A DNA stretch of 64,000 nucleotides from the NCBI RefSeq assembly GCF_039654945.1, contig NW_027361831.1, positions 10,416,001 through 10,480,000 of the forward strand. The letters run 5' to 3'. A model generated the notes under the pieces. It worked only from the letters and a program-made list of their open reading frames with translations. It was not told the DNA's origin and searched no databases. Each line of letters begins with the position of its first letter. Position 1 is the stretch's first letter. The DNA is from Dendrobates tinctorius. Lineage: Eukaryota. Shown piece after piece: positions 8,886 through 64,000 of this stretch. The position numbers and the translations under genes were made by a program.

Positions 8886-8989
8886 GGGGCCTCAGTGTAT
8901 GCAGGACTCTGCTGTGCTGGTTGTCATGGTGCTGGATGAGGGGAAGTTTCTGTGTGGGGTCAGGAGGGGTTTACAGGGTGGATGTAGCA

Positions 8990-9732
8990 GAGCCGTGTGT
9001 GTACGAGGTGTACGGAGCGGAGCCGCGTGTGTACGAGGTGTACGGAGCAGAGCCGCGTGTGTACGAGGTGTACGGACCGGAGTCGTGTGTGTACGAGGTG
9101 TACGGACCGGAGTCATGTGTACGAGGTGTACGGACCGGAGTCGGGTGTGTACGAGGTGTACAGAGCAGAGCTGTGTGTGTACGAGGTGTACGGAGCGGAG
9201 CCGCATGTGTACGAGGTGTACGGAGCAGAGCCGTGTGTACGAGGTGTACGGAGCGGAGCCGTGTGTGTACTAGGTGTACGGAGCGGAGCCATGTGTGTAC
9301 GAGGTGTACGGACCGGAGTCATGTGTACGAGGTGTACGGACCGGAGTCATGTGTACGAGGTGTACGGACCGGAGTCGGGTGTGTACGAGGTGTACAGAGC
9401 AGAGCTGTGTGTGTACGAGGTGTACAGAGCAGAGCCGCGTGTGTACGAGGTGTACGGAGCAGAGCCGTGTGTACGAGGTGTACGGAGCGGAGCCGTGTGT
9501 GTACGAGGTGTACGGAGCGGAGCCATGTGTGTACGAGGTGTACGGAGCGGAGCTGCGTGTGTACGAGGTGTACGGAGCGGAGCCACGTGTGTACGGAGTG
9601 GAGCGGTGTGCGTATGAGGTGTACGGAGCGGAGCCGTGTGCATACGATGTGTGTGGAGCGGAGACGCATGTGTACAAGGTTTATGGAGCGGAGCCACCTG
9701 TGTACGAGGTGTACGGAGCGTAGCCGTGTGTA
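8990..9732. repeat. CpG-rich minisatellite, about 25 units of 28-30 bp (consensus GTGTGTACGAGGTGTACGGAGCGGAGCCGC)
   Basis: Directly visible tandem array with variant units; it produces the many spurious periodic ORFs in this region. Confidence 0.97.
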
Positions 9733-9867
9733 TATTATTGTGTGTCCCGCATGTCACTTACAATTTTCCCCTTACAGCCCAATTTTTCTGATCTGAGCTC
9801 AGTCCCAGGTGTCCGGCGCTCTCTATATTATAGATTCGGTGCATATTGGTAGAAGTTATAATAATAA

Positions 9868-23583: not shown

Positions 23584-25094
23584 CTTGCAATTTGCCAAAA
23601 ACAAGGAGAATAGGGTTTGACCAGGAAATGACTTCATAAAGCCTTTTTTTTTTTTCTCTTCAGTCAACTTTGTTAAAGTAGCAAACGCTGACAAATCGTT
23701 CAAAAAACGCATTAAAAAAAACGCGTGAAAAATGCACAAAAACCGCACCAAAAACGCATACAAACCGCATGGAAAACCGCAAAAAAACCGCGACCGGTTT
23801 CTGGGAGCTGTACCATGCGATTTTTATCAGGAAAAATATGCACAAGAAATGCAACGTGTGCACTTAGCCTAAGAGTAATTTGTCATCTTGAGAAACTATC
23901 TATCTGCTGATAGGTCAATAATTGGTAATTAGTGGTTTAAGCCTGGTTAGTTGGCTTTCTGGAAAAGCGTTAGCTACAGGGAGAAAATTACATTTTCTTC
24001 TCCCTGCTGCCACTTGTTTCCTGTCATAGCATCTGTGCAAGGAGATGTTGCAGTCACCGCTCACTACAAAGTGACAGTACAGTAATAACATCCCTGCACT
24101 TTGATTGTGATGTTTTCCAAGGAGCCCAAGCTGGGCTTCATAGAATGACCAATATGGCAGCAACACATGGCCACCTATCAGCATCTTGCAACTGCGCCAC
24201 AGGGGGCTGATGGGAGCTGGTGAGTGCATGCCACTGTCAGTGATTGAAAAGGGCATTTAAGTACTTAAAACAGCAGCAATCAAGGCAAGCTCTGATCACT
24301 GCTGCTACAGGCAGACGCCGGCTGTGTAGCGCTTCTGACATCTGCCTGGTATGGAGGAGGCTCAGCTCCTGGACCTGCTCCTCACAATCACATCCCTATG
24401 GTGTCATAGCTATGTCAAAATGTGAGATGAAATTTATTTCACTTGTCTGTTCCTAAACTTGGAAATGCAAAAGGAATTCCCTAACATGTGAAACAGTAAT
24501 ATTTTTACACACCACAATGTACTTACATACATTCATCTTACAAAAATACATAAAATTCCAGATACACAAAAACATACAAAGACATGCGCTCACACAGTAC
24601 ACAGACATCAGTACATGAATACAATACATCAACTACCATCAGTACATTGTGCATCAATTGTAATATCAGATCAGACCTACAGCTCTGGCAAAAATTTGTC
24701 TGATTTTTCTCTTTATAGGTATATGTTTGAGCAAAATGTAAACTGTTCTTTTAGTCTACAAACTTCTGACAACATGTCTCCGAATTTCCAAGCAACACAT
24801 TTTTTTTTCTGAAAAGGAGAAATGGTCAAAATTAAAAAAAAAACAAAAAAAAAAACAGTGCTTTCAGACCTCAAATAAAGAAGGGGGCTGGGGAAGGGCA
24901 CAGCCTAGGGGAAGCCCCCCATGACTGCCATGGGTGGGAAGTTTTAGAACTGGTGTTGTGCCAGTTTGAAATAGTTGGCCGGGACGGGGGCCGGGGGAGG
25001 GGTTTAAGGAGGGGGCAGCCTGTATTAGGGAAAAAGTGCGGGAAAAACCGCACTCACCAGCCAGGAGCAGAGGAGAGAAGTCCCACCTGAATCA

Positions 25095-27305
25095 ATGGAC
25101 GACGAGCAGCAACTTTTCACCAGGCTGCAGGATGTGGCCAGGTCCAGGAGGGGAGGATGGCTACAGACCCAACTTTCCTCCCTCCTCAGCGCTGCGGAGC
25201 AGGGATCCAGCCGGCGTGGAAGGAGGACCCGTCCCCCCGAAAGGCTGTCACCGGAGGTGTCAGCCCGCAGCAGGCGGCGGCTGCGGAGCCCCTCCAGGGA
25301 CCCTGCGGGCGGCGCAACAGTTGGGGCTGCATCCCCTCCCTGCGCCCGTCCCGGCAGGAATCCGCCCAGCCGGCCGGTCAGCACGGGCGGCAAGCGTGTG
25401 GGAGCCGGACAGGAACAGCAGGCCGGACCGGAAGTGTCGTCGCGGGCAGGAGCCGAAGAGTCGCGCAGCAGGGAGGAGAGTGAAGGCCGCGGCAGGCCCT
25501 CACAGCGGCGAGGCCGGCGGCGGCCGGCGCCGGGCAACACAGCGGCGAGAGGCAGGATCGAGGGCGCCCCCGGGGATGAGGACCGCTCGGGGGTGTCTGC
25601 CAGCCAGGGCACCAGACGTGGCGCGGCGGGCAGGAGGGGGCATTGCGGCAGCACCCTGCCTGGCCCCACCGTCATCAGAAGGGCCGGAGGTGAGGCGGGC
25701 GGGAGGGTGCCGGTTGCTGCCGCCCTGCCTGCCCCCATTGCAGTCCGTAGCGAGAGAGCTGCGGTCGGGAGGGGGCAGCACGAGGACGCCCTGCCTGGTC
25801 CCAGCAGCACGTGGAGCCCCGACCGATCGGCGGACGGGAGGGGGCTCAGCGGGGACGCCCTGCCAGGTCCTAGCAACGCGTGGAGCCCGGAACGGTCGAC
25901 GGGCGGGAGGCGACTTAGCGTGGTCGCCCTGCCTGGCCCCTATACAGCAGACGGGGCACCAGGCACCTGGGGGCATTTATCCGGGAGTCGCCCGGAGGGT
26001 GCTACGGACCGGCCAGTCGGGCACGGGTCCAGGGACTGTCACAGGTCCCGTTCAAGCGCGAGTTCTCGGGAGCGGCGGGTATCGCATGCTCGGGTCCCCC
26101 CTGGTGACGAGGAGGCCAGGGGCGCGGGCCTGGAGCAGCGGAGCCTGCATCAGGATCATCGAGGACGTCAGGATTCCGGATTTCCAGCTGGCAGGGACAC
26201 AGCACCCGCGCAGCTATGTGAGTATGGCTCCATGTCGTGTTTGTCGCCCGCAGGGGCTGTATTGCAGGATGATGGGGGCAGGCAGGGAGATGGTAGGGAG
26301 CGGATGGGGCGTAGCGGGGCTGAGGTGCCGGGGCTAAGGGACATTTTGGCGAACATGTCGCAAATATTGAGGAGACTGGAGGGGGGGGTAATTGGGGAGG
26401 CAGCTCCGTCCCCAGCGGGGGCATGGTTAGTGGGTCGCGGTTCGGGCACAGAGTCGGGTGGTGACGTGTTACGTGCGGTAGAATGCGATGAAGGAGCTGC
26501 GGCAGGAGTGTCTGTTTCAGTGCAGACAGAGACGGATAAGGGGGATAGGATAAAACTGGACGATAGGGCTAAGGGAGAGGTTTATGTGTGCTTTGAGGGG
26601 CCGCTGGGGGCCCATTTAAAGAAAGAAGTGAAGGAAAAGATTTGGCGGGACGAGTATGTGGAGATATTTTCATTGCTGCCGTTGGAAAAGTTTAACCTGG
26701 ATAAGGGGAAGAAGGACGATAGTAAAAAAGAGGAGGAAGAAAAGAGGAGGTGGCGTCTGATCCCGCAGACTTTTGTGAATTGGATGCAGGCATTCGCTAT
26801 TTTGGCTAGTGTCATAGGGGAGAAGTCTCCGGATAATTGTTCTGGCCTTTTTTGTTATTTAGATGCTATTGGGGAGGCGCATCGTATTTATGGGGGCCAG
26901 GCGTGGCTGCGATACGACGAGCAGTTTAGGCAGAGGAAGGCCGTAAGGCCAGAGATAAAGTGGGATCAAAAGGATATCGGGCTGTGGCTGAAGGTGATGG
27001 CCCCAGTGAGGTATGGGCAGTCCTTTCACGGGAGCGGGAGCAGCGGCAGTCAGCAAGCAGGTCAGGGGAGCAGTGGTCAGGCAACCCAGGGAGGAAGAGA
27101 GAAGTCGGGGGCGTGCTGGCAATTTAATGACGGGCAGTGTAAGTACGGGGCGGGCTGCAAGTTCAAGCACGTGTGCTCCCACTGCAACGGTAGCTCACAC
27201 GGCGCTTCCAAATGTTTTAAGAAAGGGAAAGGAAAGCCAAATGTGGGTGCCGGTCAAGGGGGAGAGCCCGGTGAGGGTTCAAGAGATGGCCCCCTTTCTA
27301 AGTAG
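25095..27305 (+). CDS. Ngaro ORF1, Gag-like, 736 aa, with C-terminal zinc fingers
   Basis: WLRYDEQFRQR motif; CWQFNDGQCKYGAGCKFKHVCSHCNGSSHGASKC. Confidence 0.9.
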   Translation: MDDEQQLFTRLQDVARSRRGGWLQTQLSSLLSAAEQGSSRRGRRTRPPERLSPEVSARSRRRLRSPSRDPAGGATVGAASPPCARPGRNPPSRPVSTGGKRVGAGQEQQAGPEVSSRAGAEESRSREESEGRGRPSQRRGRRRPAPGNTAARGRIEGAPGDEDRSGVSASQGTRRGAAGRRGHCGSTLPGPTVIRRAGGEAGGRVPVAAALPAPIAVRSERAAVGRGQHEDALPGPSSTWSPDRSADGRGLSGDALPGPSNAWSPERSTGGRRLSVVALPGPYTADGAPGTWGHLSGSRPEGATDRPVGHGSRDCHRSRSSASSRERRVSHARVPPGDEEARGAGLEQRSLHQDHRGRQDSGFPAGRDTAPAQLCEYGSMSCLSPAGAVLQDDGGRQGDGRERMGRSGAEVPGLRDILANMSQILRRLEGGVIGEAAPSPAGAWLVGRGSGTESGGDVLRAVECDEGAAAGVSVSVQTETDKGDRIKLDDRAKGEVYVCFEGPLGAHLKKEVKEKIWRDEYVEIFSLLPLEKFNLDKGKKDDSKKEEEEKRRWRLIPQTFVNWMQAFAILASVIGEKSPDNCSGLFCYLDAIGEAHRIYGGQAWLRYDEQFRQRKAVRPEIKWDQKDIGLWLKVMAPVRYGQSFHGSGSSGSQQAGQGSSGQATQGGREKSGACWQFNDGQCKYGAGCKFKHVCSHCNGSSHGASKCFKKGKGKPNVGAGQGGEPGEGSRDGPLSK

Positions 27306-28856
27306 GTACCCGGCTCGGGCAGAGGCCAGCGTGCTTTTGAATGGTTTTGTTGACGGTTTCAGGATTCCATCTCCTGGCCATGTGGTTCCTTTTTCTGTTA
27401 AAAATTTGCGGTCGGCAATAACGCATGCGGAGGTAGTAGATGAGAAGTTAAAAAAGGAAGTGGATTTGGGCAGGATGGCCGGTCCGTTCCCCACGGCTCC
27501 TGTTGCGGGCGTGATTGTTTCCCCGTTGGGGGTTGTGCCTAAGAGGGAGCCGAATAAGTTTCGTTTGATTCAGCATTTGTCTTATCCAAAAGGCTTGTCA
27601 GTTAATGACGGTATCGATAGGGAGTTGTGTTCTGTGGAGTATACCTCTTTTGATACGGCGGTTAAGTGGGTGCGACGTTATGGGTCAGGGGCTTTGTTGG
27701 CAAAGACAGACATTGAGTCCGCTTTTCGGTTACTACCGGTTCATGCAGATAGTATCCCGCTGCTGGGATGTTTTTGGAAGGGGAATTTCTACCTCGATAG
27801 GTGTTTGCCGATGGGTTGCGCAATTTCTTGTTCATTGTTTGAGACGTTTAGCACTTTCCTGGAGTGGTAAGGGATGTTACAGGAATGCAGTCGATCATTC
27901 ATTATCTGGATGATTTTCTTTTTATTGGCCCCCCGGATTCGCCGTTGTGTAGGAACTCGTTGGCAGGCATGGTTTGGGTGGCGGAGCATTTTGGGGTGCC
28001 GCTGGCATCTGAGAAGACGGAAGGCCCTAAGGCCGTTATAAGTTTTTTGGGCATAGTTGTCGATTCGGAAAGGATGGAGTGTCGGTTACCAGAGGTCAAG
28101 TTGGCATTGTTGAAACAGGAGGTGGAGAGGATTTCGAAGTTGCGCAAAGTGACCCTCAAGGAATTACAATCCCTATTGGGGAGATTGAACTTTGCCTGCA
28201 GGATCATGCCTATGGGTCGAATTTTTTCTCGTCGTTTGGCTAGCGCGACGGCAGGGGTGAAGGCTCCGCACCATTACGTTCGCTTGACGAAGGAGCATAG
28301 GGACAATTTGATGGTTTGGCAGCGGTTTTTGCGGAATTACAATGGGCAGTCGCTGATGCAGGAGGAGACATTGAGCAATTTTGATTTTGAAATATTTACG
28401 GATGCAGCAGGCAGCTCTGGTTACGGCGCCTACTGTAAGGGAAGGTGGAGTGTGGGGCGGTGGCCTCAGGCGTGGAAGTTGTTGGGCCTTACCAAAAACT
28501 TGGCACTATTGGAGCTGTTTCCTATCGTGGTAGCTGTTTTGGTGTGGGGTCCCATGTTCGAAAATAGGAGAGTGCGCTTTCATTGCGACAACGCGAGTGT
28601 TGTAGCGGTCATTAACAGTTTGTCGGCCTCCTCTCCCCCCGTAGTTAGATTGGTTAGGGTTTTGGTTCTTCGATGTCTGGATTTGAACGCAGGGATTTCT
28701 GCAGTGCATGTGCCCGGGGTTACGAATTCAATAGCAGACTCTTTGTCTCGTTTTCAGTGGGGGCGTTTTCGAGAATTGGCGCCAGGAGCGGATGCCACGG
28801 GCGTGGAATGCCCTTCCTTTCTGTGGAAGGTGATTACGGAAGAGCAGGAAGACTGA
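27241..28856 (+). pseudogene. Ngaro ORF2, reverse transcriptase/RNase H, with one frameshift at about 27865
   Basis: SPLGVVPK, FRLIQHLS, KTDIESAFRLLPV, LPMGC, then in another frame HYLDDFL, FTDAAG, LELFPI, HCDN, ADSLSR. Confidence 0.9.
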
Positions 28857-29719
28857 TTCGGGAATCCTTATCGCAGCAGACATGGTCGGCCTACGATTCT
28901 TCATGGCGAGTATGGCAGAGTTGGTTGGCAGAGTGGGGTGGGGTCGAAAGTGATGAGGATAGGATGTTGGCGGTATTGTTTTTAATTGGGAAGGCAGCTG
29001 ACAGCGGTTGGTCTGCTGCTAAGGTAAACAAGTTTGTAGCGGGTTTAGCTTTCGGTTTCAAGTTGCAAGGGGTGGGGGATGTTACGAAGAGCTTCTTAGT
29101 GAGTCAGGCGTTAAAAGGGTTTCGTAGGGGTAACAAAGCCGGCGACAAACGAAGGCCTATTTCGTTTAGTACGTTGGAAGGCTTAGGCAGAGTCCTTGGG
29201 GGTATTTGCACGTCAGTTTTTGAGTTGGCCCTGTTTCGGCTGGCTTTTTCTTTGGCCTTTTTTGGGGCAATGCGCATTGGCGAGGTGGTGTCAGGCAGCA
29301 GGGTTTCGGCGGGAGGGGTGTTGGCAGAAGATGTGGAATTTTGGGCAGGGGGCATTGTTTTTTGGATTCGGCGTTCAAAAACTGATCAACAGGGTAGGGG
29401 CAGACGGGTAGTTTTGGGGCGAGTTGAAGGGGCATTAATGTGCCCACGTGGCTGTTTGGAAACGTATTGGGGCGTATGGGCGGGTAGGACGGGTCCTCTC
29501 TTGTGCCATGCGGACGGCACCTATTTGTCTCGGTTCCAGTTCATTGCGGTTTTGAAGAAGGGATTGGTAGAGTTGGGCCTTCCCCAGGACATGTACGGGT
29601 CTCATTCATTTAGGATCGGTGCTGCGACCGAAGCGGACAGCCTTGGGTTGGGGGCTGATGCGATTAGGAGAATTGGCAGGTGGCAGTCGGATCGGTATTT
29701 ACTGTATGTTCGGCGTTAG
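28673..29719 (+). CDS. Ngaro ORF3, tyrosine recombinase (true start uncertain)
   Basis: AFFGAMRIGE, RRSKTDQ, HSFRIGAAT, GRWQSDRYLLYVR carry the catalytic R, H-x-x-R, W and Y residues. Confidence 0.93.
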   Translation: MSGFERRDFCSACARGYEFNSRLFVSFSVGAFSRIGARSGCHGRGMPFLSVEGDYGRAGRLIRESLSQQTWSAYDSSWRVWQSWLAEWGGVESDEDRMLAVLFLIGKAADSGWSAAKVNKFVAGLAFGFKLQGVGDVTKSFLVSQALKGFRRGNKAGDKRRPISFSTLEGLGRVLGGICTSVFELALFRLAFSLAFFGAMRIGEVVSGSRVSAGGVLAEDVEFWAGGIVFWIRRSKTDQQGRGRRVVLGRVEGALMCPRGCLETYWGVWAGRTGPLLCHADGTYLSRFQFIAVLKKGLVELGLPQDMYGSHSFRIGAATEADSLGLGADAIRRIGRWQSDRYLLYVRR

Positions 29720-29728
29720 CTGTGTGGT

Positions 29729-30373
29729 TTGCATGTCCTGGGATGTGTTTTTTCTATATTCTGTTGTGTTTTTTCAGGTGGCGGCCCCTTTCTTGCCTGG
29801 ATATTCGGACACTCTTACGTTTATTGGGGTGCGCTACGAGCCGACGCGAGGCCAGATGGTAGGCAATTGGGCTTTGGGAGGGAGCAGGTGCTGGTCCGTT
29901 GGTTGGGTTTCCGAGGCATGGTATGGAGCAGGGTGCTCCTGGAGTTAACCAAGTCCGCTCGCTTGGATAGAACCCCCGACATTATTGTTTTCCATGTGGG
30001 GGGCAATGATTTAGGGGTCAGGCCGGTGAGAGAATTAATTAGGGACATACGTTCCGATTTTTTGAGGTTGTGGACATCGTTCCCGAACGTGGTGACGGTA
30101 TGGTCGGATGTAGTACCCAGACAGAGGTGGAGGCAAGCGAGATCGTTGAAAGGGATTAACAGGGCAAGGGTAAAATTGAATCGTGCGGTGTCGGCATTTG
30201 TGTCCAGGAATGGGGGCATTAGTGTTCGTCACTTTGAATTGGAGACAGGTGCCGGTAATTTTTGGTTGGCCGATGGGGTTCATTTAAATTCTATTGGTAT
30301 TGATTTATGGGCACTGTCAATACAGGAGGGGATCGAGAGGGCCTTGGTGGTTTTGGGGCACTCACGAGCCTGA
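29729..30373 (+). CDS. Ngaro ORF4, SGNH/GDSL hydrolase (probably entered via a splice acceptor at 29777/29778)
   Basis: FGHSY (block I), HVGGNDLG (block III), DGVHLN (block V). Confidence 0.88.
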   Translation: MHVLGCVFSIFCCVFSGGGPFLAWIFGHSYVYWGALRADARPDGRQLGFGREQVLVRWLGFRGMVWSRVLLELTKSARLDRTPDIIVFHVGGNDLGVRPVRELIRDIRSDFLRLWTSFPNVVTVWSDVVPRQRWRQARSLKGINRARVKLNRAVSAFVSRNGGISVRHFELETGAGNFWLADGVHLNSIGIDLWALSIQEGIERALVVLGHSRA

Positions 30374-33015
30374 GGTGGTCAGGGCTGTTCGTGGTTGGCG
30401 GGGGTGGGGTTCTTGGAGTTGACGGTGATTGGTCGGGGAAGGATTTGGAAGTAACATTCCCGACAGTTTAAAATGGTATGGGGGATCTGGCTTTTGGGTA
30501 TGGGCTCTGGACGGGGTTTTACCTCGGGAGCTATGGTGGTTGGTCTCCCAGAAGGGGAGTTACGGTGCCCTCGAGCTGGGCTGGACGGCTGGGGGTAACA
30601 TGGTGGAAATAAGTTTATAGCCAGATCTTTCTAGCTCCAAGAACCCTCCCCTCATAATTTTGAATTATTTAATGTTTATTGTTAATGTTTGTTAATAAAA
30701 TTGGCCGCTGTGGCCAAAATTATCCAAAGAATTTAAATTGTACCTTGTCTTATTCTCAGGAGAAGGGAAAGAGGGGGATGATAGGAGGCGGCGAGGTATC
30801 GAGGAGAAGGTAAAACTGAAGTCGCCATATGCGGTCAAGAAGGGGGCTGGGGAAGGGCACAGCCTAGGGGAAGCCCCCCATGACTGCCATGGGTGGGAAG
30901 TTTTAGAACTGGTGTTGTGCCAGTTTGAAATGGTTGGCCGGGACGGGGGCCGGGGGAGGGGTTTAAGGAGGGGGCAGCCTGTATTAGGGAAAAAGTGCGG
31001 GAAAAACCGCACTCACCAGCCAGGAGCAGAGGAGAGAAGTCCCACCCACCCTCCCTGTTTTGGGAGCATGTTGGGGGCTGCTAGGGGATGTACGTTTTTA
31101 AAAAAAAAAAAAAAAAAAGTGATCGGTATATAGATTCTTGTCAGGGTCTATATGAGGCGTTGTTGTTGCTGTTGTCACAGTGGCTGTGGGGCGGGGGGTG
31201 GGGTTCTTGGAGTTGACGGTGATTGGTCGGGGAAGGATTCGGAAGTAACATTCCCGACAGTTTAAAATGGTATGGAGGATCTGGCTTTTGGGTATGGGCT
31301 CTGGACGGGGTTTTACCTCGGGAGCTATGGTGGTTGGTCTCCCAGAAGGGGAGTTACGGTGCCCTCGAGCTGGGCTGGACGGCTGGGGGTAACATGGTGG
31401 AAATAAGTTTATAGCCAGATCTTTCTAGCTCCAAGAACCCTCCCCTCATAATTTTGAATTATTTAATGTTTATTGTTAATGTTTGTTAATAAAATTGGCC
31501 GCTGTGGCCAAAATTATCCAAAGAATTTAAATTGTACCTTGTCTTATTCTCAGGAGACGGGAAAGAGGGGGATGATAGGAGGCGGCGAGGTATCGAGGAG
31601 AAGGTAAAACTGAAGTCGCCATATGCGGTCATGCAAAGAAAACAAGTTCATAATCATTCAGAAACAAAAATACTAATGTTTTTACTCGGGATGAATTCAG
31701 AAATCAATATTTTGTGGACTAACCATGATTTTTAAAAACAGCTTTCATGGGTCACACTGCTTCTTGCACAAAAATTTAATCAGCTCTTCTTTGTTTGATG
31801 GCTTGTGACTACCCTTCATCCTCTTGATTACATTCCAGAGGTTTTCAATGGGGTTCAGGTCTGGAGAATGGGCTGCCCATGACAGGGTTTTGATGTGGTG
31901 GTCTCTTAATTTTTTCCAGAGCAAAAATATACATTTGTATTGCATAAACCTAAAACTCCCAGTATGTCCTTAACAATGGTAATGATATACTGGGAGCTGT
32001 TGTTACCAATCATTATCAACATGGGTTTACGGGTGACCATTCCTGTCAGACTAATCTGATAAGCTTTTATGAAGAGGTCAGTTCCGGACTGGACCAAGGG
32101 AATGCAGTGGACGTGGTGTACATGGACTTTTCAAAAGCTTTTGATACTGTGCTACACAAAAGATTGATACATAAAATGAGAACAATGGGGATAGGGGAAA
32201 ATATGTGTAAGTGGGTTAAGAGCTGGCTCAGGGATAGGAAACAAAGGGTGGTTATTAATGGAGCACACTCGGACTCGGTCACGGTTAGCAGTGGGGTACC
32301 ACAGGGGTCAGTATTGGGCCCGCTTCTATTTAACATGTTTATTAATGACCTTGTAGGGGGCATGGAGAGTAGAATTTCAATATTTGCAGATGACACTAAA
32401 CTCTGCAGGGTAATCAATACAGAGGAGGACAATTTTATATTACAGGAGGATTTATGTAAACTAGAAGCTTGGGCTGATAAATGGCAAATGAGCGTTAATG
32501 GGGATAAATGTAAGGTCATGCACTTGGGTAGTGCGACCACACTTAGAATACTGTGTACAGTTCTGGTCTCCGGTGTATAAGAAAGACATAGCTGAACTGG
32601 AGCGGGTGCAGAGAAGAGCGACCAAAGTTATTAGGGAACTGGGGGGTCTGCAATACCAAGACAGGTTATTACACTTGGGGTTATTTAGTTTGGAAAATCG
32701 AAGGCTTAGGGGTGATCTTATTACAATGTATAAATATATGTATAAATATATGCGGGTGCAGTACAAAGACATTTCTACTAAAGATCTTTTTACTCTTAGA
32801 CCTGTGACGGGGACAAGAGGGCATCCTCTACGTCTGGAGGAAAGAAGGTGTAAACATAATCACAGACACGGATTCTTTACTGTAAGAGCAGTGAGACTAT
32901 GGAACTCTCTGCCATATGATGTTGTAATGAGTGATTCCCTACTAAAACTTAAAAAGGGCCTGGATGCCTTTCTTGAAAAGTATAATATTACAGGGTATAT
33001 ACACTAGTTTCCTTA

Positions 33016-56829: not shown

Positions 56830-57980
56830 CTCTGTGTGAGTTTTTCAAAATAAGCTATAAAATGATTCTCCAATAAAACATTTCTCACATTCTAGATATG
56901 ATAATGGCTTCTTCCTGTGTGAGATTTTTGATGTTGAAAAAGATGCCATTTGTGGGTAAAGCATTTCACAAATTTTCAACATGAACATGGCTTCTCCCCT
57001 GTGTGAGTTTTCTAATGAAAAACTAAAAGTGATTTCTGGTTAAAGAATTTCACACATTCTGAAAATGAAAAGAGTGAGCTTTCTGGTGTTTAAAGGAAAT
57101 CTATCAGTAGAATCAACCCTCTTAAGCCATCTTTATCAGCATGTAGGTAATAGAAAGTTGAATAAAATGATACCTTGATATATGAGATTCAATATCTTAT
57201 TCCAGGGAAATGTCCATTTTTCTTAATATGTAAAGGAGTTAAGATCTATGGGCTTTACACAGATCTTCCTGATAATCTGCCTCAATAGCTTATTTTAAAT
57301 AAAAGTGGGAGGTAACAGTGAGAACTGACTGTCATAATCATATACAGCTCTGCAGTGAGATCAGAACTAACAGTACAGCAGAAGTGAAATTTGTCTCATT
57401 ACAAACATTTGCAGCAGGAATGGCAGTACAGCAAAAGATGATAGTTCTTTCAGAAGGCAACTGAGAATCTGCTTGTTTTGTTTGTAATGAGACAAGATTC
57501 ATCTCTGCTGCACTGTGTAATCACATAAGCACAACTCTGCAGCAGAGCTGTCAACACTGAGAGGACAAGTGCCTCTGCAAAAGTTTGTATTAACGCAAAG
57601 CTTATGCTGTACTGTTTCAGCTGTGCTATACTGTTAATTCTGATCTCACTGCAGCGTTGTGTAATTATGAATGCAAAGTATCAGTTACATGTCTCAAAGT
57701 GGCAACTCCCCTTTTTTTAAATAAGTTATGGAGCCAGATTATAAGGAAGATCTGTGTCCGGCCCATAGATCTTAACAGCTCATTTGCATATAAGTAAAAT
57801 CTGGGTTTCTCTGCAAAAGTCATCGAATAGCAGATATCAAGGTATCATTTTATTCAACTTTCTATGACCTGCATACCCATATAGACAGTGTAGGAGCTTT
57901 GCTCCTACTGGCAGATTCCCTTTAACACAACTTGATTTATCTACATAAAATTTCCCACATCCTGTACAAAAGAAAAATCT
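56830..57980 (-). pseudogene. Relic zinc fingers downstream of the ZNF gene 2 stop codon
   Basis: After the TAG: CTGCGKFYVDKSSCV|KHQKAH (split by the MITE), then further decayed TGEKP-type units. Confidence 0.75.
57094..57921. mobile_element. T2/Kolobok-type foldback MITE
   Basis: TTAA TSD at 57090-93 and 57922-25; AGGAAATCT...AGATTCCCT termini; long imperfect inverted arms (e.g. atagaaagttgaataaaatgataccttgatat). Confidence 0.85.
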
Positions 57981-59575
57981 CTACTCTGTGTGAATTCTCT
58001 GGTGTCTCACAAGATTTGATTTATCTGCATAACATTTCTCACATTCTGAACATGAAAAAGGCTTCTCCCCTGTGTGACTTCTCTGGTGTCTCAGAAGATT
58101 TGATTTATCTGCATAACCTTTCCCACATTCTGAACATGAAAAAGGCTTCTCCCCTGTGTGAGCTCTCTGATGTAGAATAAGATGCGTTTTCTGGTTAAAA
58201 TATTTTCCACATTCCGAACATGAATGTGGCTTTACTCCAGTGTGAATTCTCTGATGTGTAACAAGATACGATTTATCTGCAAAACATTTCCCACATTCTG
58301 AACATGAATATAACTTTTCTCCTGTGTGAGTTATTTGATGTCTATCAAAATGTGATTTAATCGCAAAATACTTCCCACATTCTAAACATGAAAAAGGCTT
58401 TTCCTCTAAGTGAAATTTCTGGTGATTAACAAAATTTGATTTCCTTGCAAAATATTTCCCACATTCTGAACATGAATATGGCTTTTCTCCTGTGTGAATT
58501 ATGTGGTGTTTAAGAAGACTTGCTTTCTCTGCAAAACATTTTCCACATTCTAAACATAAATATGGCTTTTCCCCTGTGTGAGTTCTCTGATGTGTAACTA
58601 GATGTGCTTTATCTACGAAACATTTTCCACATTCTGAACATGAAGCAGTCTTCAGCCGTTTCTTCCCTCTGTGAATGCTCTGGTGTTTATATAGATACGA
58701 TTTCTTTCCAAAATACTTTCCACATTCTGAACATGAATATGGCTTCTCGCTTGTGTGAGTTTTTTGATGTTCAACAATACTTGATTTCTGTGTAAAACAT
58801 TTCCCACATTCTGAACATGAATATGGCTTCTCAGCTGTGTGAATTCCCCGGTGTCTAGCAAGACCTGATGGTCCTGTAAAACATTTCCCACATTCTAAAC
58901 ATGAATATGGCTTCACTCCTGCATGAGATCTTTGATGTGTAAAAAGATTTGCTTTATCGGCAAAACATTTCCCGCATTCTGAACATGAATATGGTTTCTC
59001 TCCAGTGTGACTTCTCTGATGTCTAAGAAGATGTGATTTCTGATTAAAATGTTTCCCACATTCTGAACATGAATAAAGCTTCTCTTCTGTGTGAGTTCTT
59101 TGATGTCTTAGAAGATATGATTTATATGCAAAACATTTCCCACATTGCGAACATGAATATGGTTTCTCCTCTTTGTGAATGCGCTCATGTCTAAAAAGAT
59201 CTGAATTCTGGTTAAAATGTTTCCCACACTTAGAACAAGAAAATATTTTATCTTCTGTTTGAATTTTTTTTTGTGTAACAAAAGCTTTTTTGAGGGAGTA
59301 ACTTTTATTTTTTGAAGATGCAAGTTGCTTTTTTTCTGTTGGAGCATGTTGATTTTTAATGTCCATATTATTACTTTTATTTTTCTTAATCGTGTGTGAT
59401 GAATTAGGAGATAGAACTTGTTTCAAAGGATCAGATGAAAGTTGTTTGATGTGAAGGGTTGATGATATATCTGGAGTAATGACATTCACTTCAATGGTAT
59501 CTTGTATTATATCAAGTTCATCTGATTTAGATATTGAAGATGTCAGTTGTCCCTCTGATCTCCTGTCACCGTCAT
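57981..59575 (-). CDS. C2H2 zinc-finger gene 2, terminal coding exon with 15 fingers (upstream exons not found in the window)
   Basis: Acceptor ttggcag|AT at 59576/59575, homologous to the last exon of gene 1; 15 CxxC-x12-HxxxH units with TGEKPY-type linkers. Confidence 0.95.
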
Positions 59576-61093
59576 CTGCCAAGAATAAAACATCCTTAAA
59601 AATAATAATAATTTAAAATATTTCTAGATAAAATGTCCATAGAAATGGCAAGTTATTTGGCAAAATTCATGATCTATTACCAGAAAAACAGTTCACAATC
59701 TAATAGACGACCTCAGAGCATGGACCAGTAGAGCATGGTGTAAAATAATGGAATAATAAATCACCAAAAATGTTATGTAGGCTAAAATGATTCCAATAGA
59801 AACTTCTCATCCAGAAAAAAAAGGCCCCACTCAGGTCCATCATTTGTCAATGGAAAAGTCTCAGTTACTAACCGCTAACAGGATTTTTCAGAACCCATGA
59901 CTGCACCACAAGAGAGGGGATCTGTCCACCAAGAACCCAAAACCTACAAACTAAAAAGGGTGGCACCTCTCTCCTGCATCTGTTACAGACCATGAGAAAC
60001 CTCCAATGGTTATGACAACAACATATTTTATTTTTTCCCCTTTTTCCTTCCCCCCCCCCCTCTTTTTTACCTATCCCTTCTTCTTATTTATTAACCCGCT
60101 TTTCTTATCTTTCTTTTTCTTCCCCTCTACTTCTTTTTTATTTATTTACACATTTCCAACTTCATTCCTTCCTCTCTCTCATTTATCATAAACTGTTCTC
60201 TCCCCTTCTCACCCCTCCCTCTACTACTGAGTCTCTCCTTCAACAGTGCAGGTACTGCTCTGAGCGACCACATGACTTCTTCCAAACACACACTGCCCTC
60301 AGCCTGACCTCCCTCTGCTCTCCCTCCCTATGCTGCAAACCCCATACAGACGCCAGGACGCTCTAGCCACGTTGGCTTTATGACGTCATCATCCTGCACC
60401 TTCTTAATACACATATATAGACCGTGCTTTCTTGAGCACACACTTACAACACCGCAGGTCCAGGCTGCTCCCATGCCATCAGGTCAGCTCTGCAGCACCA
60501 CCTGGTGCATAACATCTCCTTCTGATCCATTTTTTTCTTCTCCACATTCATTTCTCATGTTTTCTCCTACAGCCCCTGTTTGGGACTTCTGAAAATGCTC
60601 TAATTAATCTTTTCCTTGACACTACTTGAGGTTAGTACTCAGTATATCTGCCTTATTTGCCTGCCTTGTGTTTCCACCACCCCTGTTATTTCATCATGTA
60701 CAGAGACAATACTATAATATGTCTCATCTAGGTCTGCTGCTTATCCCCATTGTTACTCCTGATGCCTAGAATGTTAAAATTGACTTGTGGCCAATAGTCT
60801 CTCTAGCACTTGCTTAATTTAATTTTTTTACTCTCTATATGACATTTTCCTAATTGCCCTAGGGACCTTTATGTTGTTGTGCTTAAATTTGTATAGATAT
60901 ATGTTTCGCCTTTAGGGTTTTTTTTGCACTACTTTTCTGTTGTGCTTTTTTTGTTAGTATTTTTTAAAAAAAAAAAAAATATTTTTTAAAAATTTTTTTC
61001 ACATTTCTCTCATGTTTATTTTTTCTTTTCCAGCTTTCCGCGAGTTTGTCGTCCATATTCATTGTTGTAATTGCTTTTTATTTTATTTTTCAG

Positions 61094-61137
61094 TATGGTT
61101 TGAGAAAGGCCTCCTAGTAGGTCGAAACGTAACCATA
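61094..61137 (+). ncRNA. Minimal type I hammerhead ribozyme (U3-A8 variant) in the PLE pseudo-LTR
   Basis: Stem I TATGGT/ACCATA; core TTGAGAA(A); stem II GGCCT/AGGTC; GAAA; loopless palindromic stem III ACGT; GUA cleavage triplet ending at 61131. Confidence 0.8.
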
Positions 61138-61423
61138 GTATACTCATATCCTGGATTACGATATTATACCCACATTTTGGATACTTCTTTTGTCTGCGGT
61201 GTTACACTATTTGATGCATTTGAAATAAAATAAAAATCCAAAAATTTCACAAAATCTTCAAGATTTTTTGCAAGATTAATCCACACTTGAGTGCGACTGT
61301 TTATCTACTGACTACTGTTTGTGGACCCTCCACGTACAGTCAGCACCTATCTCCTCCACAGCAAGAGTGCGCGTCTTTCTTCTTTTGCTCGGCTTTTTGT
61401 TGACGCTTGCACCTGCACCCTAA

Positions 61424-62221
61424 ATGTCTCGGAATACCTTTGCCTTTGACGACACAACAACTACTCGGATCCTGTCCCAGGTTACCTCTTCAGGGGACTT
61501 CTTGAAAACCCCTGCTCAAGAAACCCGCACTAGAGACTACGAAAGGGAACGACGACGACTACTGGCCTATGATCTACATGCTACCACTCTGGCGGAGTAT
61601 CATAAATTAGATAGAATTCCACGGGGCCTGCGGAGCCATCTCCGACCTACCTTATTCTCAGACAAACCTGAGTTCTGTGAAAGATTCCAGCAAATACTTA
61701 ACAAATGTTCACTTGATATTATTCTGTTAACAATTGATTTTCTCTACACAGCAATTACCGAGACATCCACGAAAATTGCTTCTATAGAGGAACAACTTAG
61801 CTCCACTCTTTCTAACAGCGATTGGCAAAACCTTAAAACCAAAATGGACAAGTCCCTTGACGAAAACCGTAAAACCCTACAAGACAGAAAACGAGCCAAA
61901 TTCCAAAGGGACGCAGACGACTATACCAACGACAGGGTCTACAGATGGCACGACTCCTCCTCTACGGGCTCTGGGCGAAGGAACTACAATCAAAGACGCA
62001 CAGGCGCTTACCACACCGACAGCGACAGCTCCACTGGAAGCTCATCTCACAATCGTTTTTTAGCCAGGCGTCAACCTTCAAGAAACAACCATCAACAGAC
62101 GGCAGGAGAAGACCGACCCGGAGGGCAAGCCGCAAACTACGCAGAACGTATGACAACCAGATCTCAGGTAAGCCCACCAACTCGGTCTTCAACATCTCAT
62201 CCTACACCCTTAGCCCGTTAG
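61424..62221 (+). CDS. PLE ORF1 (N-terminal IPRGLR / coiled-coil domain), 265 aa
   Basis: TLAEYHKLDRIPRGLR, ILNKCSLDIILL, KRAKFQRDADDY...VYRW. Confidence 0.85.
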   Translation: MSRNTFAFDDTTTTRILSQVTSSGDFLKTPAQETRTRDYERERRRLLAYDLHATTLAEYHKLDRIPRGLRSHLRPTLFSDKPEFCERFQQILNKCSLDIILLTIDFLYTAITETSTKIASIEEQLSSTLSNSDWQNLKTKMDKSLDENRKTLQDRKRAKFQRDADDYTNDRVYRWHDSSSTGSGRRNYNQRRTGAYHTDSDSSTGSSSHNRFLARRQPSRNNHQQTAGEDRPGGQAANYAERMTTRSQVSPPTRSSTSHPTPLAR

Positions 62222-64000
62222 AGCTGTCTGTTCTTCAAAAAGGCTTATCATTCTGTCCCACCCCTCCGTGGGATAAATTCCAGCTATCACAAGATCTACA
62301 GAACTTTTTTCGGACGATTCGCCTTAAAACACATTTTGGACTGGAACCAGTCACCCCAGGGAACAGGGCCCCTCCAATTGGGGGGAACCCCATTCCCGAT
62401 TTATCCATCTCTTCCCTCGGTCTACGCAACCCCAGTAACTTCTCTCCACCACACACCTTTCATGCTGTTGAGGCTTTTATTGATGTAGTCCAGAAAGACA
62501 TAGAATACATTTTAGCTGAACATGAAAAAGGTTTATTACCTACACATAGTAACATTACCCCTATAGAGAGACAAGCCATTGATTCCCTAAAGAATAATAA
62601 ATCAATAATCATCAAACTGGCTGACAAGGGAGGAGCCATTGTCATCCAAAATTTCTCCGACTATATGGATGAAATTTCACGTCAACTTTCTGATTCCTCC
62701 ACATACCAGAAAATTTCCCGTGATCCTACACCACGCATTAAGCTCCTAATTGACGAAGTCCTTGACAGGTATCTGACCCTAAAAACCATTGATTCCAAAA
62801 CCGTCACATTTCTCAAAAATTCTAACCCAGTCATCCCTGTATTCTACACATTACCCAAAATTCACAAGTCTCTACTTAAACCTCCTGGCCGCCCTATCGT
62901 TGCCTCTACTGATTCAATCTTCTCCCCAATCTCCACCTTTTTAGAAAAAATCTTGACCCCTCTTACCAAAACTACCAAGTCCTTAGTCCTAGATACAGGT
63001 CACTTTCTCTCCTTTATTCGACAAATTGACAATATCCCTCCGGAATGTCTCCTAGTCACCCTGGATGTCAAAAGCTTATATACTTCTATAGATCACGACC
63101 TAGGGGTAAGTGCTACCAAAACCCTCCTTGAGTCCTCTGACCTTTCCCACAACTCCATTCAGCTTTGTATTGATCTCCTGTCCATCATCTTGAAAGAAAA
63201 TTTCTCTCTCTTTGGGGACCAATTTTATCTACAGTGCCGCGGGACCGCAATGTGCGCTAACGTAGCACCTGCTTACGCTAATGCCTACATGAATGATTTC
63301 GAATGTTCCTATGTCTACAATAATACCCTTTTCAAAACATACAGCCAATGTTGGCTACGATATATCGACGATATTTTTTGTCTATGGCTGGGTACCCTCG
63401 AGGACTTACTTTCCTTCACGGAACATCTTAATTCTATCAGACCTGAATTACAGTTCACCCTTAATTGCAATTCTTCACAGATCTCTTTCCTGGATACACT
63501 AGTAATCAAGTCCTGCACTGGTACACTCTCTACTGATCTATATGTTAAACCCACCGACTCCAACAACCTTCTTCATTACACAAGCTGTCACCCTGCCTCT
63601 ACCAAGGATAGTCTCCCCCGTTCTCAGTTCACACGCGTTACTAGAATTGTCACAGACCCTACTCTGGCTCCCATTCGCCTCAATGAAATGTCAGACAAAT
63701 TCAAAGTAAGGCATTATCCCACCAAACTTCTTGAAAGTGAAACACGCCGTGCCCTGGAACCTTGCCCTCTGCAACCATCTCAACCCAAAGGCGAACGTGT
63801 CACCTTCGTACACACCCACCATCCTGTTATGCCCAAAATTTATCACATTATCCACAAACATTGGTCAATTCTACCTAGATCCTATCCCCACATTGAGGCA
63901 TTTAAAACACCAGCACTTATGTGCAAACGCCGTCCTAGAAATATCCGAGATGAGCTGGTCAGAGCCGATATTGGTAGTCTAACTAGAACTCCTAGACAGA
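62062..64000 (+). CDS. PLE reverse transcriptase ORF in the -1 frame, open to the window end (absent from the supplied ORF track)
   Basis: Manual translation without stops: VFNISS, KGLSFCPT, KLADKGGAIV, YTLPKIHK, GRPIVA, LVTLDVKSLYTSI, GTAMCANVAPAYAN, WLRYIDDIF, ISFLDT, YVKPTD, SCHP. Confidence 0.93.

Follow-up and report, generated by a model that had tools for sequence, protein, structure and literature searches.

At the end of the window, by which we mean the whole 64,000-nt stretch of Dendrobates tinctorius DNA analysed here, lies a young endonuclease-bearing Penelope-like element (PLE), probably of the Neptune type, in which ORF1 is followed in the -1 frame by a reverse transcriptase (RT) with a GIY-YIG endonuclease (EN) (Table 1). 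The original prediction of a two-ORF PLE joined by a phased -1 slippery site holds, and both the offset and the phased heptamer are conserved across copies. Its reading of the junction was also correct: CGT TTT TTA (62054-62062, with CGT as codon 211) places TTTTTTA in phase, frame 0 stays open for 52 codons past the heptamer, against an estimate of about 50, and the -1 frame, open from 61873 to the window end, runs without a stop into a full RT whose ORF ends past the window. A Pfam search of ORF2 matched RVT_1 and GIY-YIG, and two cysteines can be read from the sequence between the GIY and YIG equivalents of the endonuclease. The RT-EN linker motif CLGCACC has the CX2-5CxxC form of the Neptune clade, a motif given in the account of PMC8557442 as common to Neptune and Nematis; the CxxCxxC linker thus points to a Neptune/Nematis type. 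The direct repeat is the pseudo-LTR that characterizes endonuclease-bearing PLEs. A hammerhead pattern match was found here and in 18 of 30 families, in the form of the U3-A8 variant already described in PMC4209133, and an Rfam search of 59600-64000 gave no match, hammerhead included. Canonical endonuclease-bearing PLEs are termed single-ORF in the overview of PMC8557442, whereas two ORFs at -1 were found here in 236 of 304 distinct copies; the GIY-YIG domain likewise sets the element apart from Athena/Terminon, a group defined as having no endonuclease. The window copy is young but slightly damaged. The GTAMC and KLADKG changes that had been flagged in its RT are indeed near-private damage (1 of 23 and 2 of 25 readable family copies), and its extra ORF1 Met is seen in 1 of 28.

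Table 1. Features of the element in the window; window-equivalent positions lie beyond its last base
Feature	Position	Strand	Remarks
5' pseudo-LTR (copy of element 3' end)	60024..61389	+	98.5% identity over 1373 nt to window-equivalent 64945-66314
Minimal hammerhead-ribozyme motif, U3-A8 core variant	61095..61136	+	Pattern match
ORF1, 265 aa	61424..62221	+	Coiled-coil helical core (about aa 1-175) and disordered S/R/G-rich tail
Conserved RT-frame AUG and stop-free 37-codon leader	61945..62055	+	AUG formed by ORF1 xxA-TGG
Phased U_UUU_UUA slippery heptamer	62056..62062	+	ORF1 Arg211-Phe-Leu213
Dual-coding stretch	62056..62167	+	ORF1 frame, RGG-like tail; RT frame, arginine-rich motif
5' splice donor CAG/GTAAGC at ORF1 TRSQ	62165..62173	+	Predicted intron from 62168
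ORF2: RT, linker CxxCxxC, GIY-YIG endonuclease	62062..64000	+	-1 relative to ORF1; continues to window-equivalent 64461

The element directly adjoins a 543-codon C2H2 zinc-finger exon on the minus strand (57981-59612), and since the 84-nt finger repeats have further matches at 1-151 and 56924-57074, the insertion lies within a zinc-finger gene cluster. Many of the copies are arranged as closely spaced inverted pairs on a single contig, among them L002/L011, L008/L012, L015/L016 and L007/L017, which is the usual PLE insertion geometry. Elsewhere in the window there are a 28-30-nt tandem array (8937-9764), a 66-69-nt GC-rich repeat (25624-25940) and near-identical 210-300-nt duplications (24878-31493).

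Searches of the frog's own genome yielded 363 loci, 353 of them with both anchors, of which 304 copies were distinct and were grouped at 80% identity into 43 clusters. For family-weighted tests, the 27 clusters containing copies that passed the offset, heptamer and donor filters were taken together with three in-frame clusters; these tests are hence conditional on the heptamer, and the families, being related by descent, are not independent draws. The query P0059 rewards in-frame copies, and the remaining 220 copies were taken as the unbiased set. That set has 209 copies at -1, 11 at +1 and none in frame. Outside the in-frame clade described below, 236 copies are at -1, 13 at +1 and 29 in frame, all 29 having been fetched by P0059 alone. 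A phased run of six T's is present in the approximately 200-nt junction of 225 of the 236 copies at -1; by comparison, such a run occurs anywhere in 390 nt of ORF1 core in 20 of 244 copies, and the 26 copies of the in-frame clade have no run of six T's, phased or unphased. Examination of other genomic copies, which had been proposed as a check, therefore finds both the offset and the phased TTTTTTA conserved.

Base 7 of the heptamer is A in 207, C in 16 and G in 2 of the 225 copies, and AG follows the run of six T's in 200. The codon that supplies the first T varies among eight common codons, all ending in T (TCT, CGT, CCT, CAT, ACT, TGT, AAT and GGT). Cross-species support from other frogs comes from protein sequences only: FL is found in the tails of 152 of 181 ORF1 homologues (shuffles, mean 10 and maximum 18), the tail being otherwise unalignable, and in 73 of 86 fish-type ORF1 tails, again far above shuffles. 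Residues whose codons cannot end in T (K, E, Q, M or W) precede FL in 0 of the 152 and 0 of the 73 proteins, against a background of 0.147. Divergence at four-fold sites drops from 0.478 in the ORF1 core to 0.398 between AUG and heptamer and 0.226 between heptamer and donor, so that synonymous constraint increases at the heptamer and not at the AUG. Downstream of the heptamer the -1 frame is open (14 stops in 12297 codons), and it encodes an [RKP][TS]RR motif in 20 of 27 families. A young family with copies 98-99% identical (L231-L250) has T TTT TTC in place of T TTT TTA and is at -1 in 17 of 19 distinct copies.

One nested clade has replaced the heptamer and the AUG by a continuous ORF of about fusion length. 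It comprises three subfamilies and 26 copies, all with an offset of 0, and its ORF of 1004-1017 aa comes near the predicted 1012-aa fusion; heptamer and AUG are both gone and the donor has been kept. In an RT tree the clade is monophyletic (100/100) and nested among the -1 families; five distant loci served as the outgroup of this tree, which omits nine of the 30 families and three distant loci for short open frames and holds no reference Neptune sequences. The clade represents one evolutionary event, and hence one control. Its members (L051-L078 except L074 and L079, and L309-L312) form a natural copia-like derivative.

RT-EN lies in a predicted intron, with its donor near the ORF1 end and its acceptor past the stop of ORF2. 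The donor AG/GTR at the ORF1 motif TRSQ is present in 294 of 304 distinct copies, and in the window element the predicted intron would run from 62168 to window-equivalent 64620 (2453 nt). Joining the donor to pyrimidine-rich acceptors past the ORF2 stop would make ORF1 end, just before its stop, in IH (window family), AGKGSFSET or TR, and these are the ends of the NCBI models P0001 and P0088 and of several TRSQTR proteins; for model P0063 the acceptor filter recovered no acceptor. Both the sequence signals and the NCBI gene models agree with a predicted copia-like, splice-gated ORF1. We consider splicing out of RT-EN very likely, with ORF1 protein probably made mostly from spliced RNA that lacks the RT-EN ORF. 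There is also an acceptor-like site, T-rich and with a CAG ending at 61093, immediately before the hammerhead motif (region 61080-61136), and a further donor after window-equivalent 64657; by analogy with other PLEs these probably delimit a UTR intron.

The original prediction mentioned an in-frame ATG, placed at about 61944, as a caveat of alternative entry. It exists, one base further on at 61945, and is more than a side caveat, since it is conserved and under selection in the frog clade. The AUG is formed by ORF1 Tyr-Arg/Lys-Trp, and the RT frame is kept open exactly back to it. Of 25.3 Arg/Lys codons preceding the Trp, in family-weighted counts, 24.0 end in A, compared with a frequency of 0.50 in the ORF1 core. 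In the leader, third-position T has a frequency of 0.03, 0.06 and 0.09 before AA, AG and GA but of 0.39-0.52 before GG, AC and AT (0.42-0.52 for AC and AT), an avoidance that is absent in the ORF1 core and in the in-frame clade; dinucleotide bias was rejected as the cause of the stop-poor leader, as T before AC, AT or GG is not avoided. In the RT frame, the codon preceding the AUG is a stop at a frequency of 0.33, and beyond the AUG this frequency never exceeds 0.06; from AUG to heptamer there are 42 stops in 8190 codons, mostly private, as compared with 0.10 per codon for the core. A slip further upstream, near the Trp codon, was likewise rejected, given that a stop often stands directly before the AUG and that the surrounding sequence is not slippery. 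Families 8 and 25 have partly lost the AUG, and in 8 of 8 of their copies the RT frame extends open over 88-92 codons to a different AUG upstream, probably through one event.

The ORF1 start is weak in the -1 families, with a pyrimidine at -3 in 18 of 24 versus 0 of 3 in-frame families and a Met frequency of 0.005 versus 0.018; about four AUGs lie between it and the RT AUG, and about ten in the in-frame clade. FL proteins show no difference from non-FL proteins in Met count (1.56 vs 1.65). The amino acids of the leader are unconserved, diverging at 0.424 versus 0.437 for a non-coding frame. One copy (L121) has intact ORF1 and ORF2 despite leader stops, and one leader stop is common to four of nine family-7 copies. 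It is probable that AUG 61945 is a second entry to the RT frame in the frog clade, and since this AUG is under selection there, frameshifting is probably not the sole RT entry in that clade. In many families the ORF1 Lys-Cys motif (about 61703) also creates, through AAA TGT, a short RT-frame upstream ORF (M-F/L-x-stop), which could serve reinitiation or could be a by-product of coding.

The strongest evidence that the heptamer is a frameshift site comes from distant relatives, because six of them keep it without an RT-frame AUG. Eight distant metagenome loci, with 30-35% ORF1 identity and related to named teleost proteins, were compared. Six have a -1 offset and a phased T TTT TT(A/G), and in the same six a stop interrupts the RT frame 3-17 codons upstream of the heptamer and no AUG intervenes, so that the RT start of its own that is present in the frog clade is absent from them. 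Two (L367 and L369) have an intact ORF2 with no Met ahead of the first conserved RT motif. In L364 and L365 there is a downstream Met where ORF1 has TGA, and it is absent in their sister L369; in L368 the two ORFs share a frame and ORF2 is broken, and L370 is a locus outside the parsed set. The heptamer reads T TTT TTG in four of the eight (L365, L366, L368 and L369, of which L368 is the one in frame), and this form falls outside the consensus as set out in PMC3542737, where Z is A, C or U. Two distant loci have TTA TCC and lack AG after the run of T's.

As originally predicted, there is no obvious stimulatory hairpin: the fold of 62063-62170 has z = +0.66, whereas a canonical -1 site is accompanied by a stem-loop or pseudoknot 5-9 nt further on. 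When 70 nt downstream of the heptamer were folded, without pseudoknots, none of 27 families reached z < -2, and 1-2 of 27 did so in other windows; over four window sizes nothing was conserved, and of seven distant loci only L366 folded. That locus has a hairpin 6 nt downstream of its heptamer (z -3.0), which possibly compensates for the poorer T TTT TTG. A G-starting codon follows FL in 127 of 152 ORF1 proteins, with Gly in 78. The slip rate is probably low, as no stimulator was seen; shifting may be weak, or it may be aided by a protein or nascent-peptide signal.

What is conserved at the level of sequence is the offset, the heptamer, the donor, the acceptor, the AUG and the constraints on the open frames. 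We regard the junction as real and deeply conserved, frameshifting at its heptamer as likely, and its AUG as likely functional too. The picture of abundant ORF1 and a rarer ORF1-RT fusion made by slippage is therefore supported as regards the frameshift, through the AUG-less distant loci, and not as the whole picture, as splicing and the AUG have to be added. We suggest, with reasonable though not full confidence, three routes of expression. Spliced RNA would give ORF1 alone. On unspliced RNA, ribosomes slipping by -1 at U_UUU_UUA would produce an ORF1-RT-EN fusion of 1012 aa. The in-frame AUG, presumably reached by leaky scanning or reinitiation past the weak ORF1 start, would give a separate RT-frame product, predicted at 838 aa. 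The slip would be the older route, common to the fish-like relatives, and the splice and AUG appear to be additions of the frog clade.

Several other explanations were weighed against these three routes. It also counts against a slip that Phe-Leu in ORF1 and Phe-Phe in the RT frame could by themselves fix the six T's, and that the frog-clade AUG lets RT be made without shifting. It is accordingly conceivable, though we think it unlikely, that RT-EN in the frog clade is made solely from AUG 61945, in the manner of hepadnaviruses, with the run of T's a relic or a by-product of the two residue pairs. The A-ending codon before Trp, the rarity and mostly private nature of leader stops, the frame kept open to another AUG in families 8 and 25 and the weak ORF1 start all agree with this, as does the young T TTT TTC family in keeping F-F-R in the RT frame. 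However, six distant loci keep the heptamer without the AUG, the residue before Trp cannot form an AUG in 21 of 152 and 14 of 73 FL proteins, and the first Phe of the RT frame is never replaced by Leu, Ile or Val; the leader, moreover, diverges as a non-coding frame does and contains stops both in the intact L121 and, in common, in the family-7 copies. A further reading that we rate as doubtful, and lower still, has the AUG on spliced RNA make an arginine-rich, Rev/Rec-like RT-frame protein of about 80-100 aa while a stimulator-free U6A slip makes the fusion; the small protein would bind unspliced RNA and set the ratio of spliced to unspliced RNA, as in a complex retrovirus. The AUG does occur only where the donor exists, and the [RKP][TS]RR motif would fit such a protein, but that motif belongs also to the RT linker, the leader and post-splice tails are unconserved, and the in-frame clade, which has no AUG, splices as well.

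Polymerase slippage, adding a U at the T run in some transcripts and so fusing the ORFs, would make an RNA stimulator unnecessary, and seven T's are found in 5 of the 220 unbiased genomic copies. Shorter runs are as common or more so (five T's in 6 and four in 3 of the 220), as one would see with homopolymers generally; the codon phase of the run is constant, which slippage has no need of, and base 7 obeys the ribosomal rule in frogs. All of this makes polymerase slippage improbable. Still less credible is that TTTTTTAG is a 3' splice site opening ORF2: the element already uses splicing and AG comes next in most copies, but AG is missing in 25 of 225, among them families that have ATC or ACC and the young family whose site reads T TTT TTC GAC, as well as in the two distant loci with TTA TCC; C is never tolerated within the run, and NCBI models treat the site as exon and read through it. 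As for a homopolymer indel in the window copy or its assembly having broken a single ORF, the existence of a genuine single-ORF sister clade lends it some colour, yet it is refuted by the copy counts and its probability is negligible. In the window element's own family 38 of 39 distinct copies are at -1 and none is in frame, so that the predominance of one continuous ORF, which had been named as grounds for abandoning the prediction, is not seen, and the 29 in-frame copies outside the sister clade all come from one in-frame-selecting query.

ORF1 has 133 homologues at E<=1e-5 and matched no Pfam family above the cut-off. The predicted structure is a confident helical bundle over residues 1-175 with a disordered tail. 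Foldseek gave no match at E<=0.001 and the Atlas no usable one; structure comparison gave generic helical-bundle matches only (best Z 8.5 at rmsd 6.2), and no fold was assigned. ORF2 had no solved relative by sequence, and viral contigs yielded no relative. From its position and its basic, RGG-like tail, we infer that ORF1 may be an RNA-binding particle scaffold.

Athena/Terminon elements likewise have a coiled-coil ORF1 ahead of a PLE RT, and it is presumably to Athena that a figure legend on PLE frameshifting with a pseudoknot refers. According to that legend, a PLE ORF1 can be set apart by such a frameshift (PMC8557442, Fig. 1 legend). Athena/Terminon are characterized in the same review as endonuclease-less and telomeric (PMC8557442), whereas the frog element has a GIY-YIG domain, is dispersed and shows no hairpin or pseudoknot. 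It resembles Neptune PLEs as portrayed in PMC8557442 and, for Fundulus Neptune, PMC12602865: an RT with C-terminal GIY-YIG, a zinc-finger-like linker motif, pseudo-LTRs and a minimal hammerhead. In Fundulus Neptune, too, there are two long ORFs, and its ORF1 resembles nothing known, but the main description has these as non-overlapping, with no mention there of an intron or splicing (PMC12602865), and the frog ORFs overlap. Unlike described Neptune, the frog element has an internal AUG, a slippery site that is conserved and a predicted intron that takes in RT-EN.

Drosophila copia, an LTR element with one ORF, makes its structural protein from spliced RNA without pol. This layout is exactly that of the in-frame sister clade, and the -1 families would add the shift and the AUG to it. 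The Pol of hepatitis B virus (HBV) is not known to require a frameshift, whereas the frog AUG coexists with a slippery site. On the HBV core/Pol RNA, as presented in PMC10497612, an RT ORF with its own AUG stands behind several AUGs on the structural-protein RNA, as here, with leaky scanning or reinitiation as the presumed means of access to that AUG. HIV-1 gag-pol has the identical U UUU UUA heptamer in the treatment of PMC4373837, and the GGG intercodon given there is echoed by the G-starting codon after FL. In contrast to HIV-1, the frog element is of non-LTR type and is without a downstream stem-loop, with the splice and AUG as extra routes. Two-ORF Neptune elements and frameshifted PLE ORF1s are already published, separately, in the accounts cited above. 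In a literature search whose scope was the running text, rather than Repbase entries, figures or supplements, we found no account of a frameshift, intron or AUG in vertebrate PLEs.

PLEs are the sister group of telomerase, and how their RT is expressed and packaged is largely open. In a very large vertebrate clade, for which each ORF1 query gave no fewer than 12,000 first-look candidates in the D. tinctorius genome and which counts 2043 ORF1 representatives at 50% identity, there appear to be a Gag-like ORF1 that has gone unrecognised and, inside 230 nt, three switches open to testing. The junction would also supply a natural U6A frameshift that apparently has no stimulator and is conserved in fish-like as well as frog elements, and an intron over the whole RT-EN ORF bears on why self-copying PLEs retain introns. 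Many "uncharacterized" frog proteins of 240-255 aa ending in TRSQ would be explained as transposon ORF1 products. Among the ORF1 proteins, P0056, P0057, P0076, P0086, P0135 and P0195 are without FL; two of these, P0135 (1065 aa) and P0195, run on into RT in the same frame, which suggests further independent fusions.
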